The notes under the pieces are model-generated. The model had not been told where the DNA came from. It ran no database searches and saw only the letters and a program-made list of their open reading frames with translations. A stretch of 64,000 bases of DNA from a virus (Duplodnaviria > Caudoviricetes): positions 10,993-74,992 of the IMG/VR virus record IMGVR_UViG_3300009148_000002, one strand, 5' to 3'. Below, piece by piece: positions 3,711-64,000 of the stretch (position 1 is the stretch's first letter; every line of letters begins with the position of its first letter). Both the position numbers and the translations under genes were made by a program.

Positions 3711-3857
3711 TCAGGCGCATTGTCTTCAAAAATCATTGCCTGAGAAAAAATTGGCGGGGCGAATTCGGTGTCGCGAACAACACTCACACCACCGCACGGC
3801 CTCCATCCATCGGAGAGCAATCTATTAACTTCGTCTTCGAGCACAAGCGGTTCTGAT

Positions 3858-4148
3858 TCACTGAGGATTTTGTATTTCATCTGTCGCTCGTCTCTTTCGT
3901 TTTTTAGGATTCAGCAATGCGCGAGCGTCGTTGATCGTGCTCCAGTTTAAGTCCTGATGAACCGGGATGCGTGCTGCTGCGACCTCGGCCCATGCGATTG
4001 TTCTCTGCAACATGCTACGTAATTGCCGCTTGTCTTTAGCAAGCGATTTTATTTCGCAGCGGCAAGCAGGACACGCCAAGCAAACGCATTTGCCGTGTGA
4101 TATTTTCTCGAAGTGTTTTATTGGAGAATTTCTTGGTGCCGGTGTCAT
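3858..4148 (-). CDS. hypothetical protein
   Basis: ATGA-coupled to upstream minus-strand ORF; Cys cluster. Confidence 0.4.
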   Translation of the reverse strand: MTPAPRNSPIKHFEKISHGKCVCLACPACRCEIKSLAKDKRQLRSMLQRTIAWAEVAAARIPVHQDLNWSTINDARALLNPKKRKRRATDEIQNPQ

Positions 4149-4336
4149 AAAAGTTTCATTCCCTCTCTCATCGCCGCGAAGTCCTGTCGATATTCCGGCG
4201 TGACGTTCTCAACGTCCTCGATGCTGTCCGCTTCAAGATCGCGCTTCGTCGATTCGTCCACCCATCTCAACGCGGCATCGAGCGCGGATTTGAGAACCGC
4301 GTTCTGCGCACGAAGCTCTGAGTGGTCAGGATTCAT
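4145..4336 (-). CDS. hypothetical protein
   Basis: Coupled overlaps on both sides. Confidence 0.5.
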   Translation of the reverse strand: MNPDHSELRAQNAVLKSALDAALRWVDESTKRDLEADSIEDVENVTPEYRQDFAAMREGMKLL

Positions 4337-4629
4337 TTACACGGCACGATCATTACGTGGAACAATTCGCCCTGAATGCTGTTCGCAATGTGATGCCGCC
4401 GCAACTCCGTCAGCAATCGCGCTTCGCACATCGGCATAGACTCGGATGAGTCGATAGCGAACTCTGCCATGATGACCACTCGCCTTGAAGCCGGCTTGGC
4501 AAACCACGGGTCTGGCGTCGGCAGTGTCCAAGGTTGAGGTTGAGGCGTTGTGGAGCAGCCGCAGAGAAGCATGACCGACATGGCGATTAGGATTCGTTGC
4601 ACGTCATCTTTCCGAACTCGCGTCGCCAT
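4333..4629 (-). CDS. small putative lipoprotein
   Basis: Hydrophobic stretch ending LLCGC then Pro-rich segment; start uncertain. Confidence 0.45.
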   Translation of the reverse strand: MATRVRKDDVQRILIAMSVMLLCGCSTTPQPQPWTLPTPDPWFAKPASRRVVIMAEFAIDSSESMPMCEARLLTELRRHHIANSIQGELFHVMIVPCK

Positions 4630-27535: not shown

Positions 27536-30052
27536 TTATTCCGTTTCTATTGGCAGATTGTTTTCGTCGTTGGTCGTTTCGTTATTCTCGTCCTGAAGTA
27601 AATTCGCTGAGGCGCAATAATCCCGCCAGAGAGTCCAATCACCGGCAAATCCAACCACCACATCGCCAGTCGGATCATTCGGCGTGCAGACGCCACTTCC
27701 CCATTTGGCTTGCATCGACTTCATAAATCGAGACGTGCTGGTGTACACCCAATAAAACTGGCTGCTGTGCGACACGAAAAGTCCGCTTGTGGCGTTGGTG
27801 AATTCGATCTCAGCCGTGGCGATGTGGCAGGCAATTTGATCGGCGGTCAACACTTCGTTCGGATTCACGTCCTCCGATAGCCCCCACACGTAGGCGCTTT
27901 CAAATGAGTAGAGCGTTCCGGTGTCACAACTTCCCGTCCACGGGCTTTGATCCGGCCCCGGCCCCGGTGGAATCGGAGCCGGCCCTGATCCTTCCGGGTC
28001 TTGGAACGTCGGCAGTGTCGCGCCAGTTTCTTCTTCAAATTCTTCCTGACACTCTTGCAAGAATTCTTCCTCGGTCACGTAACGCTCGCGATAAAACTGA
28101 TCGGGTGTGAATTGCTTCAGCGTGTAGTCCAACGCGCTGGCCATAACGAACACTTGGCCGGTGTCGCACGTCTCGCAGATGTCGCGGATGGTCAAGTCGC
28201 CGAGTTGAGCGCAGAGTGACTGCGGATGATGCGGCAGGTTCGGGTCTTCTTCTTCGTTGAATAAGTACAGTGGCGGGTTATCAAACTCGTCGTCGTAAGC
28301 GGCGTAAGGGATGCCCTCCTTGACGAAACTATCCGTGAAGAAATCGAAGTGGCAGACTTGGTGTTCGTGCAGGAAGTCGCGCACGTTTGGCCGCGTGTCG
28401 GATACGTAATTCGTGAACGCCGTAAACCCGTGATCCACCAGATGAGCCGAGGAATAGTAGAGGTTGTAAACCAGCGACATATTCGGGCACACGTTGTCGT
28501 CCGTAGGCCACGAGAACCAAAGCTCTTTGGTCAAATCATTAAATCCGCCGATGACTTGGTTGCAGTGGTTTTTGTTGACTGGTCCGAACGGATCAAGATG
28601 TGGAAAGTCGGAAAGGTGTTCTGATCCGATGCCTTTGAAGATTGCGGCGCTGGAGCGGTGCATCCATTCGAGACGTTGCGGCCTTGAATCGGTTAGCGTC
28701 ATGCTAAAGCAGCCTGCCTCGCTTAGATAGGCGTGCGCCTCACCCAAGTTCACCAAACTGTATTTGTATTTTAAGGCGTCTGATCCCGTGTAAAGCGTCA
28801 GTGAAGTGAAAAGCTTTGGATCGTCAACGAAGGATAGCTGGATAATTGAGCGGTTTGTGTAAATAAACAGATAGTCGCCCATCACTTCCAGCCTGAGAAT
28901 GTGTTGGCCTGATCCGAAATCTTGAAATCCTGCGGCGCTATTGTCTGCCGGAATCCACGACAACGGCCTATTGAAATCGCTCCACACCAACCTGTCGTTG
29001 TGCAGCTTCCCATCCTGCCACACCGATCCCATCCAAATAATACCCTTCCACTCCACAATGCACCCGGCGCGGTCGATGTTCAGCGCGGCCAGTTCAGGAA
29101 TCGGATTCGCAGCCCATAGATTGCAGCCTGTGTTCGGGCCGTCGAACTGCCAGAACAAAGGCCGGTCGAAATCGTTTACGAACAGGATGTAGTTGCCGAT
29201 GACTGCCGATGAAAACCGCGTGTCGGAACATTCGCATTTGCTGGTGGTCGAGCAGGCTGTGTCCGCAACCTCTCCGCCAAGTCCGTCGGCCAGCAATCGC
29301 CAGTTGCCGGTACGTTCGTTCAGCGCATAGATGCGAGTGGCTGTAGCCGCAATGAGCTTGCGAGCGCCTTGAAAGTTTTTGAACTCGCGCAGATGCGTGA
29401 TGGCTTCCCGGCATCCGCTGCGCGTGTATGGATACGTGCCGCAGTACAGATAGTCGTAGGAAAAATAGTCGGCGTGTTCCGGCACGGCATCGCCGTAAGG
29501 ATAGCCCTCGTCGATGACATCCGGTGCGTGGAACAGCGTGGCCACAGTGTAATGCGATCCGGGATAGTAGAATGGATAGCCAGTACCACATTCGTCGTCG
29601 TAATCAGGATCGCCAAACGCCCACGGATAACCCACATCAAAACTTGAGAAGTACGAATCCTCGCCAATCGTGACATCATTGATGTAGCCGCAGTGCTCCG
29701 TCTCGTCATTCGTGATGTAATCGTATCCCGGTGTCAGCCGATCCGGCACGAAGAACGGATACGAAAGCCCGGTCACTTCACCGCCGCCTGTGATGTTTTC
29801 CTCGAAGCTTTGGTAGTAAGTCTGGTAGCAAAGAAGCTGGTCGTGCAGGTCTTGGTTTTGGAAGCCATAGATGCTATCTGAGAAAAGCTTCTTCCAACCT
29901 CCAAACCGGCAGCGTTTGCCAGCCTCGTTCATGGACAGATTGAGAACGATTCGGAAGTTCTGATAACCGACTTGGCCGTTGATGGATCGAAGATCGAATA
30001 CCCCGCTTAGAGGCTCGATGTCGATGTCTTTGAAGCAGCCAAGTTTCTTCAA
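27536..30052 (-). CDS. tail stabilisation / nozzle protein (P22 gp10-like beta-propeller)
   Basis: N-term FRIVLN...RFGGW; RLVWSD...SW; DYLFIYTNRSI; ELWFSWP...LVYN. Confidence 0.7.
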   Translation of the reverse strand: MKKLGCFKDIDIEPLSGVFDLRSINGQVGYQNFRIVLNLSMNEAGKRCRFGGWKKLFSDSIYGFQNQDLHDQLLCYQTYYQSFEENITGGGEVTGLSYPFFVPDRLTPGYDYITNDETEHCGYINDVTIGEDSYFSSFDVGYPWAFGDPDYDDECGTGYPFYYPGSHYTVATLFHAPDVIDEGYPYGDAVPEHADYFSYDYLYCGTYPYTRSGCREAITHLREFKNFQGARKLIAATATRIYALNERTGNWRLLADGLGGEVADTACSTTSKCECSDTRFSSAVIGNYILFVNDFDRPLFWQFDGPNTGCNLWAANPIPELAALNIDRAGCIVEWKGIIWMGSVWQDGKLHNDRLVWSDFNRPLSWIPADNSAAGFQDFGSGQHILRLEVMGDYLFIYTNRSIIQLSFVDDPKLFTSLTLYTGSDALKYKYSLVNLGEAHAYLSEAGCFSMTLTDSRPQRLEWMHRSSAAIFKGIGSEHLSDFPHLDPFGPVNKNHCNQVIGGFNDLTKELWFSWPTDDNVCPNMSLVYNLYYSSAHLVDHGFTAFTNYVSDTRPNVRDFLHEHQVCHFDFFTDSFVKEGIPYAAYDDEFDNPPLYLFNEEEDPNLPHHPQSLCAQLGDLTIRDICETCDTGQVFVMASALDYTLKQFTPDQFYRERYVTEEEFLQECQEEFEEETGATLPTFQDPEGSGPAPIPPGPGPDQSPWTGSCDTGTLYSFESAYVWGLSEDVNPNEVLTADQIACHIATAEIEFTNATSGLFVSHSSQFYWVYTSTSRFMKSMQAKWGSGVCTPNDPTGDVVVGFAGDWTLWRDYCASANLLQDENNETTNDENNLPIETE

Positions 30053-53594: not shown

Positions 53595-53622
53595 TTGACA
53601 ACGACTAAAACAGGCGTATCGT
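53595..53622 (+). promoter_or_regulatory. leaderless sigma70-like promoter for the operon ending in the Cas7-like gene and array
   Basis: TTGACA-16-TATCGT-7 nt-ATG 53630. Confidence 0.65.
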
Positions 53623-53629
53623 CGCGCAC

Positions 53630-53863
53630 ATGAAACCAATTTTCAGCGAGCCTAATGTTCGGCACGAAACCGATATTGACGCTCGGCTTCTGGAGTGGAG
53701 AAAAGAAAAGTTCGCTGTGGAGGTTAAGCTTGAAAGGCATCCTCTGGAAGATGGTCAAGTGTGTCTGAGCGTAACCAGCAACGGCACGCAATGGACTTCA
53801 ATAAGCCTGTTGAAAAGTGAAGTGAAAAAGGTAATCGAAGCGCTAAAAGCAAAACTCAAATGA
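53630..53863 (+). CDS. hypothetical protein
   Basis: First gene after promoter. Confidence 0.6.
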   Translation: MKPIFSEPNVRHETDIDARLLEWRKEKFAVEVKLERHPLEDGQVCLSVTSNGTQWTSISLLKSEVKKVIEALKAKLK

Positions 53864-54189
53864 AAGATCAAATCAAACTCGGACAAATAATCGAAGGCGA
53901 GGCGCATAGGGATGCAGTTCATGTGGCCATAGCGCCAGTGATGGCTGGATGCACACTTTCTCCCGGAGAGCGTGTAGGATTTATTGAAAACGGAGTTGTT
54001 GGGTGTGTGTTGCCACATGTCGGCGTCGTCGATCCGTTCTTACCAAAGCCAGTTTGGTTTGGAGAGACGTGCTGGCTATTTTTATTTCCGAACACAGTCA
54101 CCGATCTGCGGCATTCTTGGAGCCATCCTGCGTTCAAAGAGCAGGCTCCTGTTAAGGATGAAGGCGATTACGAAGATTGCGCCTGCTAA
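53860..54189 (+). CDS. conserved phage hypothetical protein
   Basis: RDAVHVAIAPV...PG..VG...VGVVDPFL...WLFLFPNT..DLRH.WSHPAF pattern. Confidence 0.7.
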   Translation: MKDQIKLGQIIEGEAHRDAVHVAIAPVMAGCTLSPGERVGFIENGVVGCVLPHVGVVDPFLPKPVWFGETCWLFLFPNTVTDLRHSWSHPAFKEQAPVKDEGDYEDCAC

Positions 54190-54190
54190 A

Positions 54191-54628
54191 ATGAAACACG
54201 GCGAGTTCATCGAGAAGAATGGAAATGGGGATGCTTCATCAGGTGCAACGCCTTGTTCGGCCAAATACGTGGACTGCCAATGCGTCGCCTGCGGATGGAT
54301 GGACGGCTTCAAGTCGGAAGCAATCACGCATGGGATGGTCGGCGGCTGGTGCGATACGTGTGGCCGTGAGACGGTTTTCCGAGTCTCGAAGCCAGAGGAA
54401 AACAAATACGCCTCGATGCAAGACCTCGCGGTGTCCTCATTCATAAACGCAGCCCGCATGTCCGAAGCAGGGCATCTAAAACAGGCATACATGGAAGCTG
54501 AATCAGGACAACGCCTACTAAAGTCGGCGATAGATGCAATTTCGACGAACGAGAAACCACGATACTGCCACAAATGCAAAGCTTGGCACTCGCCGACCGA
54601 TGCTGGTTGGAAGGCCGGATGCGAATGA
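54191..54628 (+). CDS. Cys-rich hypothetical protein
   Basis: ATG 54191; CVAC...CDTC, CHKC. Confidence 0.55.
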   Translation: MKHGEFIEKNGNGDASSGATPCSAKYVDCQCVACGWMDGFKSEAITHGMVGGWCDTCGRETVFRVSKPEENKYASMQDLAVSSFINAARMSEAGHLKQAYMEAESGQRLLKSAIDAISTNEKPRYCHKCKAWHSPTDAGWKAGCE

Positions 54629-54927
54629 AACCGATTGCCTGCAATCCTCCTGTCGTTGAAAGCGGAATTCCGATTCCTTCGCGCAAGGTGCCGGGAAGCC
54701 GTGGGTGCGTGCTGTATGAAACGCTGCGCTCGATGTTTGCCGATCAGAGTTTTACGTGGCCAACGAATCGCCAAGTTTCTCAGATAGCTAAAGAGATGGG
54801 AATTAAGGTTGAGACGCGGAAGATAAACGGCGACGGCTACCGAATTTGGCACAAAGGCACTCTCGACGCCGAACCGCCTCCAGTCTGGCAACCGCGTTGC
54901 GCCAACGAGCCGAGATGGCCAATGTGA
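54625..54927 (+). CDS. putative small DNA-binding protein
   Basis: VESGIPIP...M..DQSF...G..V.TRK...GYRIW pattern; ATG 54625. Confidence 0.6.
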   Translation: MKPIACNPPVVESGIPIPSRKVPGSRGCVLYETLRSMFADQSFTWPTNRQVSQIAKEMGIKVETRKINGDGYRIWHKGTLDAEPPPVWQPRCANEPRWPM

Positions 54928-55109
54928 TCTGCATGAAACCAACCACTCAGAGGATCGTTAAGAAAAGCGTCGTGTTTTCAAGTCACGGGAAGCGCAGTGG
55001 CCGCAACATCACCGCCATGCTGTTTGACCGGCTTCACGCCAAGACTCAACGGAAACAGCAGTGGTTTGGAAGCGTGAGAGAATTGATGAAGGCGAAAGGG
55101 CTGAGATGA
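54915..55109 (+). CDS. small basic protein
   Basis: Coupled chain; start uncertain. Confidence 0.45.
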   Translation: MANVICMKPTTQRIVKKSVVFSSHGKRSGRNITAMLFDRLHAKTQRKQQWFGSVRELMKAKGLR

Positions 55110-55513
55110 GTGACGAATACGGTTCGGAGCACGAGGCGTTCAAGCAGTGGTGTAGCTCAATTGATGGCTTGGCCATTACGCCAACATGGAACAGATCGCA
55201 AATCCGGCAAGTCTCGGAAACTGAGATTACAGAAGGCTGTTGGGAAATCAATGGAAGGCAGACGGTGCTGAACAATATTATCAACCTGGAATTGGAAGCT
55301 GCATGGAAAGCGTGGAAGGCCAGCGCGAAAAGGCTTGAGGGTCGTATTGTTAAGGCCAACGACCCGAACAAAGAGCAGTTCCAAAAGGCACTTAACGGCA
55401 CCGGAATTCAGATGTTGCCAAATGGCTACGCGCTGCTCAATCCAACAAAGACAGAACTGAAGATCGTCGAGCTTTACGCCCATGTGCTTTCGCGAATCGA
55501 GCCTGCGGACTGA
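55106..55513 (+). CDS. hypothetical protein
   Basis: ATG 55106 (ATGA overlap). Confidence 0.55.
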   Translation: MSDEYGSEHEAFKQWCSSIDGLAITPTWNRSQIRQVSETEITEGCWEINGRQTVLNNIINLELEAAWKAWKASAKRLEGRIVKANDPNKEQFQKALNGTGIQMLPNGYALLNPTKTELKIVELYAHVLSRIEPAD

Positions 55514-55539: not shown

Positions 55540-56223
55540 ATGACAAAAACAGAAATCAAAATCGCGGTGACATTCACCGAATCGGTGCTCGGCTCTCTGC
55601 CGGGCAATCCACAACTCATGGAAGATTACATCGTCACTAAGATGGCGAAGGATAAAGGCAAGACGCCTGACATCGTGAAGAAAAACTCAGCCGAAAAAAT
55701 TGCGGCGGTTTCCGATCCTGACACGGCGGACGAGCGTATTGAGAAGGCGACCACGGTTTTCGCTCGCGACGAGAAAGGGCTGTTCTGTTGGGACTACACC
55801 TGGAGAGGATTCTTGAAGGAGTCTATTTCCGTGCTGATCGAACTCGGTGAGGCGTCCGTGAAGAAGCTCTCCAAGTGGTCGTGCAAGCGGTCGGTGGATT
55901 CTCTGGTGTTCGTTGCGCCGCGACGGATTTATTTCCGTGACGACAAGGACAGGCCGATCATGCAACCGGAGTCGATTTGTGAAAGGCCGTTGCGAGCGTC
56001 AACGATGCAGGGAGATAGGATCGCACTGGCGCGGTCGGAACTGCTTCCGGCTGGCACAAACTGTCAGTTCACGATCACGCTGCTGGAAGGCACAAACGCG
56101 AAGTCGAATCTGGCCGTGCTGACGAAGGACTCGATCATCGAGGCATTGGAGTACGGAGCAATGAAGGGTTATGGCCAGTGGCGCGGAGGGTCATTTGGAC
56201 GTTTCAGCTACAAAGAACTGTAA
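55540..56223 (+). CDS. solo Cas7/RAMP-superfamily-like RNA-binding protein
   Basis: N-terminal strand IKIAVTFTESVLGS, helix DYTWRGFLKE (cf. RAMP 'ipGSsiKGalR'), RPLRA..MQGDRIALARSELLPAGT thumb-like segment, Gly-rich terminal loop YGAMKGYGQWRGGSFGRF plus last strand. No other cas gene in window. Confidence 0.8.
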   Translation: MTKTEIKIAVTFTESVLGSLPGNPQLMEDYIVTKMAKDKGKTPDIVKKNSAEKIAAVSDPDTADERIEKATTVFARDEKGLFCWDYTWRGFLKESISVLIELGEASVKKLSKWSCKRSVDSLVFVAPRRIYFRDDKDRPIMQPESICERPLRASTMQGDRIALARSELLPAGTNCQFTITLLEGTNAKSNLAVLTKDSIIEALEYGAMKGYGQWRGGSFGRFSYKEL

Positions 56224-56235
56224 AAGCAAGTCGCC

Positions 56236-56298
56236 ATGTTGGGATTCACCATCGGAATAATATTCGGACTGCTGTGGTGCTATGTCTATGAAGATTGA
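56236..56298 (+). CDS. 20-aa hydrophobic micro-ORF
   Basis: MLGFTIGIIFGLLWCYVYED; overlaps next ORF. Confidence 0.3.
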   Translation: MLGFTIGIIFGLLWCYVYED

Positions 56299-56482
56299 CG
56301 AGAATGGTTTGGACTACGTTGGGCCTTGCAAAATAGACTGCGAGCAAAAGTGCGATGTGCCGGACGGCGTTACGCTGTATCCAGTGCCTCGCCCGCGACA
56401 CAACTGGACAGACTGCCTGCACTGCCCGAACTGCGAGCGGTCATTCATGGTGATGAAACGCAGTAGTCCGAACAGTGAATAA
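56282..56482 (+). CDS. small Cys-rich (zinc-binding) protein
   Basis: C...C...C and CLHCPNC; lies between Cas7-like gene and array. Confidence 0.55.
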   Translation: MSMKIDENGLDYVGPCKIDCEQKCDVPDGVTLYPVPRPRHNWTDCLHCPNCERSFMVMKRSSPNSE

Positions 56483-56970
56483 AGCAATGTTTCAGCAAAG
56501 CGTAGAGTAGATCAGTGGAGGCATGGCACAGCAACGTGGAGACAAGCCTAGGAAAAGCAGAGAACCGACGGGCATAGGCAAAGCGGCGAAACGCTATGCG
56601 GCGGATTAGCAATGAATGGACAAGTAACGCGACGGGCAAGGCCAAGCGCGAAAGGGCAAAGGCAAGGCAAGGGAGTAGCAGAGTAAGGATCAGCAGTGGC
56701 ATAGCTGGGTCTGGCTTGGGATATGAGAAGCGAAGACAAGTGATGCTCAGGCATGGCAGAGGACAGCAACGCTGAGGCACGGTTAGGGTAAGCAACGCGA
56801 AGGCATGGCAGCGCGAGGACACGCTTGGGAATAGTCCAGCAACGTCCGGTAAAGGCAATGCGTCGTAGTGTCAGAACTGCGTTGGTGAAGTGAAGCGGTG
56901 ATTCGCGATGCGACGGCATGGTGAAGCACTGGACAGCAGTGGCATGGCGCGGTCGTGAGAAGCCGGGTTA
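56483..56970 (+). repeat. pentamer-periodic non-coding array (nG-N-NN units, often RGC-NN); putative guide RNA locus
   Basis: About 95 units by hand parse, G at position 2 in all but one, e.g. agcaa agcgt agagt agatc agtgg a ggcat ggcac agcaa cgtgg agaca agcct; no credible ORF; ends at a terminator. Confidence 0.85.
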
Positions 56971-57002
56971 GGCGCTGGTGGGAAACCGCCAGCGCTTTTT
57001 CT
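56970..57002 (+). terminator. intrinsic terminator closing the array
   Basis: GCGCTGGTGG-GAAA-CCGCCAGCGC followed by TTTTT. Confidence 0.9.
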
Positions 57003-63417: not shown

Positions 63418-64000
63418 ATGTGCGATTTTAATAGCACTGCTTGGCGCATGATCGGCCAAGACATGCAGTGCGCTCACCTGCCATCAAACTCGCATTCGGA
63501 AGCAATCAAAGCTGCCGGATGGCGAGACAACGAACCGAATCGAAAGACAATCATCTTTGAGGCCGAATGGGATGGCCAAGGCGACATGCCTTCCAGTGAA
63601 AAACTGATCCGTAACTGCGCCGAGTGTCCCGAACGCTTGGTTAAGCGCATTCGGTCGCACTACTCCAAGCTGCAAGAGGCTATCACTTCCGGCAAATATT
63701 TGGACACGTATTTTTCCGACACCGAAAAGTGGCACGATGTCTGGACTGCCGCGATGAAAAATGACGTGACGCCAGACTTTTCATACGTCACTAGCTTTGC
63801 TGGCTACATCTACGTGAGGGAAAACGCCACGCTCACGGCTCCGGCTCTAGTGAAGGCTGGCAACATCGACGTGATGAAAAACGCCACGCTCACGGCTCCG
63901 GCTCTAGTGAAGGCTGGCAACATCTACGTGAGGGAAAACGCCACGCTCACGGCTCCGGCTCTAGCTGAAGTGGCTGGCTACATCTACGTGATGGAAAACG
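63418..64000 (+). CDS. partial ORF with L-domain/LRR-like solenoid repeats (runs off window)
   Basis: ATG 63418 open to the end: MCDFNSTAWR...AGYIYVRENATLTAPALVKAGNIDVMKNATLTAPAL... Confidence 0.75.
   Translation, partial: MCDFNSTAWRMIGQDMQCAHLPSNSHSEAIKAAGWRDNEPNRKTIIFEAEWDGQGDMPSSEKLIRNCAECPERLVKRIRSHYSKLQEAITSGKYLDTYFSDTEKWHDVWTAAMKNDVTPDFSYVTSFAGYIYVRENATLTAPALVKAGNIDVMKNATLTAPALVKAGNIYVRENATLTAPALAEVAGYIYVMEN
63799..64000 (+). repeat. 57-60 nt tandem coding repeats
   Basis: Units start 63799, 63856, 63913, 63973; near-identical except a few non-synonymous sites. Confidence 0.9.

Follow-up and report, generated by a model that had tools for sequence, protein, structure and literature searches.

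The locus at positions 55540-57002 of a 64,000-nucleotide stretch of DNA, the whole of which is referred to here as the window, very probably encodes a VIPR (Viral Interference Programmable Repeat) system that belongs to a clade other than type II and is carried by a complete 75-kb phage. The window covers positions 10993-74992 of a 74,992-bp IMG/VR virus record (IMGVR_UViG_3300009148_000002), which has a CheckV completeness of 100% and encodes a large terminase subunit and virion genes, identifying it as a phage. VIPR was described in two preprints from April 2026 as a lone RAMP protein (Vipr) that acts together with vrRNAs composed of GGY/NN pentamers, with one protomer bound per pentamer (bioRxiv 10.64898/2026.04.26.720920,.720927). 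It was reported that the GGY triplet is sequestered and that the NN dinucleotide pairs with double-stranded DNA, one target base being skipped at each step, resulting in transcriptional silencing of rival phages and satellites (same preprints). Seven VIPR types were defined therein, and two further preprints from October 2026 extend the work, non-canonical anchors included. A sequence-only reading of the window had proposed that a lone Cas7-like protein operates with a pentamer-coded RNA, and this is supported by the Cas7 fold of the protein, its full-length profile homology to the Vipr of SUSP1 and the co-occurrence of gene and array in 82/84 loci. Fold, homology, array grammar and gene-array pairing were all established in the present analysis. 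The resemblance to 'VIPR'-type systems that the same reading pointed out has its counterpart in print in the two April preprints. As VIPR is already known as a CRISPR-related system for RNA-guided DNA silencing, the window locus is a further example that leaves the picture of VIPR unchanged; it demonstrates that a VIPR system is recoverable from reading a sequence alone, and it contributes a clean instance, from a complete phage, of the array layout that has been characterised least.

The vipr gene (55540-56223, + strand) is an open reading frame (ORF) of 227 codons, in which the RAMP/Cas7 motifs quoted by the sequence-only reading are present. The encoded protein has a single RRM core, a thumb-like beta-hairpin at approximately residues 145-169 and a G-loop of the form G210-Y-G-Q213-W214-R215...G220-R-F222. 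Conservation across the family is highest in this G-loop, GYGQWRGGSFGRF. Searches with Vipr against Pfam and PHROGs returned no match. The Cas7 assignment comes from the structure: an AlphaFold model built on an alignment of 23 homologues reached a predicted local distance difference test score of 86, and the top matches of this model in Foldseek are Cas7 backbone subunits, namely type VII Cas7 (E 2e-7), Csm3, a chain of a type IV-B complex (7jhy) and Cas7-11. Thereby, the comparison with Cas7 and Csm3 structures that had been suggested as a check on the reading gave a positive outcome. The fold-search library ends on 8 April 2026, and the SUSP1 Vipr structure (PDB 36pp) is not among the fold matches. 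The family is large, comprising 1366 clusters at 50% identity (E <=0.001) and at least 559 loci in IMG/VR.

The vrRNA array is located at 56488-56969 on the + strand as a G/A-rich, non-coding tract of approximately 93 pentamers of the form N-G-Y-N-N, which are organized in about 20 back-to-back blocks of 5n+1 nucleotides (nt). As the sequence-only reading had stated, the tract starts some 260 nt downstream of vipr and ends at a strong terminator; the interval between gene and array is however not empty but contains an ORF of 66 codons. The intrinsic terminator closing the array transcript (56970-57002, + strand) consists of a hairpin at 56970-56997 with a 12-bp stem, eight GC pairs and a 4-nt loop, followed by the T-run TTTTCT. 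The array of the homologous locus L001 likewise ends in a hairpin and a T-run. The 5-nt period that had been noticed is real, with an autocorrelation at lag 5 of 0.41 compared to 0.28 in 2000 shuffles (z score 6.4), and it is unique, as the value at lag 5 never exceeds 0.32 in other 485-nt tiles and no second period-5 tract is present in the 64 kb. A plain period of five is nevertheless the wrong description. The autocorrelation shows peaks at lags 5, 10, 15/16 and 20/21 and is highest at lag 26 (0.44, z score 8.2), while lag 25 lies at background, and Tandem Repeats Finder likewise assigned a period of 26 to the tract.

This super-period reflects blocks that typically consist of 5+5+5+5+6 nt and carry GG at each block start. 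If the tract is written in rows of 26 nt, five anchor columns spaced by 5, 5, 5, 5 and 6 nt are occupied by G in 7/7 consecutive rows, and the column preceding the first anchor is G in six of the seven. A Viterbi segmentation yielded nine blocks of 26 nt, five of 31 nt and one of 21 nt besides a degenerate stretch at 56634-56671, with one extra base on every fifth or sixth unit, after which GG follows. The block grammar can equivalently be written as G(YNNNG)n. The first position of the unit is purine-biased (67% A+G), and in units that open a block it is G in 90% of cases. The degenerate NGN anchor, which had been set apart from the GGY of 'VIPR'-type systems, corresponds to the repeat variants YNNNG and NNNNG that are named in the methods of one preprint (bioRxiv 10.64898/2026.04.26.720920). 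The array RNA is not more structured than shuffled sequences (z score +0.98), and no Rfam family matched within the array. Coding on the minus strand across the array (ORFs 56445-56858 and 56548-56919) was considered and rejected because the 5/26-nt period is incompatible with codons; these frames are attributed to base composition. In the homologous locus L002 a stop-free frame over the array (3799-4584, - strand) was annotated as a gene of 261 amino acids by the gene caller of the source, and spurious ORFs easily hide arrays of such kind.

The pairing of gene and array was analyzed in 84 loci, i.e., 80 from IMG/VR, three metagenomic contigs and the window. In 82 of these, the window included, a G-rich tract of period 5 lies within 300 nt of the gene and on the same strand, so that the search for downstream arrays beside homologues, proposed along with the initial reading, had a clear outcome: the tract is located downstream in 58 loci, upstream in 16 and on both sides in eight. 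This pairing persists across 35-50% protein identity. No ORF that neighbours vipr in the window recurs next to it in the 83 other loci, and the conserved unit is therefore the protein together with the array. Lags 21, 26, 31 and 36 exceed lags 24 and 25 in almost every one of these arrays, and 5n+1 blocks are thus a property of the whole clade, with block sizes peaking at 5-6 units. Within the blocks, of which 766 unique ones were compared, conservation is highest at the two ends, where the opening unit (GGCa.) and the closing unit (.GCAA.) resemble punctuation. The closing unit is not as firmly fixed in the window and the three relatives nearest to it. Differences per site between related arrays, counted within alignable array segments and thus exclusive of whole-block turnover, amount to 1.5-2.1% for position 2, 5-5.6% for position 3, 6.7-9.5% for positions 1, 4 and 5, and 13% for the extra base. 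The rate at position 2 is near that of first and second codon positions of vipr (2.0%), and the divergence at the NN positions (7-9%) does not exceed that at third codon positions of the paired vipr genes (17%).

Two further observations concern these relatives. All 112 arrays show a semi-conserved boundary motif (...GCAA-N / GGCA...), which recalls a miniature repeat between variable 'spacer' steps. The eight loci in which two arrays flank vipr, both on the strand of the gene, include L016 (9026-9976 and 10576-11276), L032, L034, L035, L037, L039 and L041.

The tested protein with which the window Vipr can be compared is that of Escherichia phage SUSP1 (YP_009199429, PDB 36pp). The SUSP1 locus in NC_028808 encodes vipr (28474-29061) and vap1 as well as GGYNN arrays that share the strand of vipr. 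A comparison by hhalign of a profile of 59 family members with a profile of 26 members of the SUSP1 clade gave a probability of 95.1% and an E-value of 3.3e-8 over 186 columns, aligning the two families end to end. In this alignment the SUSP1 G-loop G174-x-G-D177-W178-R179...G183-R-F185 corresponds to G210-Y-G-Q213-W214-R215...G220-R-F222 of the window protein. Cryo-electron microscopy of SUSP1 Vipr showed that W178 stacks on G2, that R179 holds Y3 and that D177 and H17 read G1 (bioRxiv 10.64898/2026.04.26.720920,.720927). In the window family the Trp and the Arg of the G-loop are invariant or nearly so, the Asp is replaced by Gln, and H17 is without a counterpart. The Gln for Asp and the missing His contact would fit the anchors of the array, namely a near-invariant G2, a Y3 that is mostly C and a G1 with no more than a purine bias; this correlation between residues and anchors is one that we infer from two clades only. 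The sequence features place the window system outside of type II VIPR since the first G is degenerate, the G-loop Asp is Gln, and neither a 3' tail nor a conserved accessory gene is found.

By analogy with SUSP1, RNA binding, processing, DNA targeting and silencing may be expected at the window locus as well. A single transcript of the + strand would extend from vipr across the array up to the terminator, and the protomers would polymerise on this RNA, one per pentamer, as judged by homology with SUSP1 Vipr. The near-invariant G at position 2 would be gripped by the conserved Trp of the G-loop and by the thumb, and the next pyrimidine by the conserved G-loop Arg of the adjacent protomer. N4 and N5 would thereby be free to pair with the double-stranded DNA of a competitor, one target base being skipped per step, and DNA binding would lead to silencing of transcription. 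The array would give rise to about 20 short guides of 4-6 pentamers each, which lack a tail, open with a full GG and are offset by one base from the previous guide. Such short, tail-less guides are the most likely product of the array, rather than guides of ~100 nt with tails. This layout fits the 'staggered, 1-nt overlapping' arrays and the YNNNG repeats of bioRxiv 10.64898/2026.04.26.720920, as these are worded in its legends and methods.

Comparison with the systems described so far places the window locus more precisely. With SUSP1 type II it has in common the full-length homology, the G-loop G-x-G-[DQ]-W-R...G-R-F and the location of gene and array on one strand. Type II, the type of the SUSP1 / P. 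fulva clade, shows in SUSP1 four vrRNAs, strict GGYNN repeats, 9-16 of them per guide, guides of ~100 nt that end in a structured 3' tail, and vap1; the window system differs in its degenerate first G, in Gln instead of Asp177, in the absence of an equivalent of His17, in its about 20 short blocks per transcript without tails, and in having no recognisable vap1 homologue. With the staggered VIPR arrays it shares a lone small phage RAMP protein and an adjoining G-anchored array of pentamers in the absence of cas genes or a CRISPR array, as far as the legends describe those systems. In both, the guides would stand back to back and be offset by one base, as G(YNNNG)n corresponds to a guide of 5n+2 nt that shares one G with the next and thus produces a period of 5n+1. 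'Staggered' arrays with a 1-nt overlap appear in the legends of figs S17 and S18 of that preprint, and by the preprint's own account this layout does not belong to those verified by small-RNA sequencing (bioRxiv 10.64898/2026.04.26.720920). The Cas7 backbones of class 1 CRISPR effectors (type VII Cas7, Csm3, Csf2 and Cas7-11) are more distant, with a step of 6 nt in contrast to 5 nt here and an identity of 7-17%. Unlike these effectors, the window has no CRISPR array and the phage has neither Cas1 nor a second match to the RAMP family. It had been claimed that no cas genes and no repeat array are present. For the second part, no CRISPR-like repeat-spacer array was found in the 64-kb window. 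For the first, Cas1 gave no match in the 75-kb phage and the RAMP family profile matched the genome only once, so that there is no second family member; the searches covered Cas1 and this profile, while the remaining cas families were not searched individually.

Several points weigh against the assignment to VIPR or against the details of it. Under the two-base rule, a block of 4-6 pentamers would define no more than 8-12 bases, apparently too few to single out one target. The probable connection to the tested Vipr proteins rests on one profile-profile comparison together with the shared fold and the logic of the locus: a profile of 23 sequences aligned only the G-loop of the single SUSP1 protein (probability 24%) and gave no match in the SUSP1 genome up to an E-value of 10. 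A tblastn search of the phage collection with the window protein as query did not return SUSP1 either. The type of the clade and the identity of its 5n+1 grammar with the 'staggered' arrays are suggested by legend text. Finally, no accessory vap gene is recognisable at the window locus, where Pfam and PHROGs gave no assignment for the neighbouring ORFs of 66 and 135 amino acids.

Two alternatives retain VIPR and change the way in which its array is read. It is rather unlikely that three variable bases are used per step (N4, N5 and the next N1, as in YNNNG), which would provide 15-19 target bases per block, contiguous or differently gapped. Position 1 indeed varies as fast as N4 and N5, the contacts to the first G are lost in the window clade, and the triplets TTA, CTA and TCA, corresponding to antisense stops, are depleted among the 3883 internal triplets of 823 unique blocks (140 vs. 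170 expected, z score -3.1). The sense-stop triplets are however not depleted (z score -1.1), and the purine bias of position 1 together with the G in 90% of block openers is as expected if this base still resides in the first-G pocket. Less likely still is an uncut transcript of ~480 nt under one long filament, in which the extra G every 5-6 steps would bulge out and thereby reset the register, possibly with each helical turn, and long targets would be read across blocks. The blocks are separated by no ribozyme, tail or hairpin, and the SUSP1 filament was reported to have six subunits per turn (April 2026 preprints), a number close to the peak of block sizes at 5-6 units; yet the first and last units, which in this clade are better conserved than the others, resemble handles or punctuation and not letters of a guide.

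The 'punctuated' 5n+1 array might also represent an uncharacterised guide architecture, a proposal we regard as unlikely: each transcript would contain some 20 mini-guides without tails, every one spanning 4-6 steps, starting with GG and lying between semi-conserved units, perhaps with three bases read per step or with joint action of several guides on one target. If true, both the processing route and the targeting rule would be unlike those of the published type II. A very improbable explanation is that the protein is a Cas7 mimic, i.e., a decoy or an anti-CRISPR, next to an unrelated tract that acts at the DNA level as iterons, origin or packaging site. This would account for the Cas7 fold and the phage setting only. 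Gene and tract are co-oriented and occur together in nearly all loci despite the low protein identity, the tract is strand-asymmetric, being G-rich on the strand of the gene, and is ended by a terminator, the G-loop, which contacts the RNA, is conserved more strongly than any other part of the protein, and the homologue SUSP1 Vipr binds exactly such RNA. The decoy or anti-CRISPR role, which the sequence-only reading had kept as its alternative, is thus without support. For a VIPR system of a non-type-II clade, the clade-wide figures, i.e., the 82/84 pairing, the 5n+1 blocks, the slowly changing anchor G and the exchange of Asp for Gln, form a basis for testing how short tail-less vrRNAs arise and gain specificity.

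The search for gapped targets against shuffled controls, likewise proposed with the initial reading, yielded no target. In the own 75-kb genome, NN rules with skips of 0-3 gave no score above that of shuffled guides under either boundary rule. Next to this, all 112 arrays (9748 units) were compared with related phage loci that amount to 2.9 Mb when both strands are counted. There, NN rules with skips of 0-2 returned nothing over the seed level, and for clusters of single-block matches a skip of 1 performed no better than other skips. Apparent matches at skip 3, and at three bases with skip 2, were discarded as array-to-array homology. Six target scans of IMG/VR were made under several rules. 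An exact scan with a 13-unit block of L032 gave eight matches, none of which extended, and window units 44-51 and 6-13 under the NNx rule gave 10 and 6 matches without extension under either boundary rule. Decoding with three bases gave 5 and 11 matches in unrelated genes for the blocks at 56884 and 56719, and the other blocks were not enriched over shuffled guides. These null results say nothing against targeting, because short blocks with 8-12 specified bases give little power.

Upstream of vipr a run of overlapping small genes, as read from the ORF list, extends over 53630-55513 in the same direction (+ strand). It is preceded by a promoter-like site at 53595-53622 (+ strand; TTGACA, a spacing of 16 nt and TATCGT) that matches the consensus at 10 of 12 positions. 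The sequence-only reading had assigned to this site the promoter of the operon leading into vipr. The site itself is present; such sites are however no commoner in the region than in shuffles (four found vs. 2.8 expected), which makes it weak evidence for a promoter. Within the same transcription unit, an ORF of 109 amino acids (53860-54189, + strand) matches PHROG 11912 (E 2e-26) and PHROG 17232 (E 8e-22), both phage families of unknown function, and this ORF is not kept beside vipr in other loci.

The 66-codon ORF between vipr and array (56282-56482, + strand) would encode a Cys-rich protein with six Cys residues and possibly a zinc ribbon. Its only match in Pfam is Zn_ribbon_20 with an E-value of 0.14, and a search of PHROGs gave none. 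It lies outside the conserved part of the system, since no homologue adjoins vipr in the 83 other loci, and may represent either an accessory gene or an insert without relation to it. Its start is overlapped by a putative hydrophobic mini-ORF of 20 codons (MLGFTIGIIFGLLWCYVYED; 56237-56299, + strand).

Two repeats of other kinds were observed apart from the arrays. Many IMG/VR phages of sample 3300045988 have, ~7 kb upstream of vipr, C-rich tracts of ~275 nt with a period of 10/30/60 and not of 5, e.g., at 2751-3026 in L024, 2826-3126 in L026 and 3301-3551 in L038, with ~30 similar loci; these may be coding repeats. In the window itself, a 57-nt tandem repeat at 63799-64000 comprises at least 3.5 copies with 90-93% identity, continues past the window end and is probably a repeated coding module.
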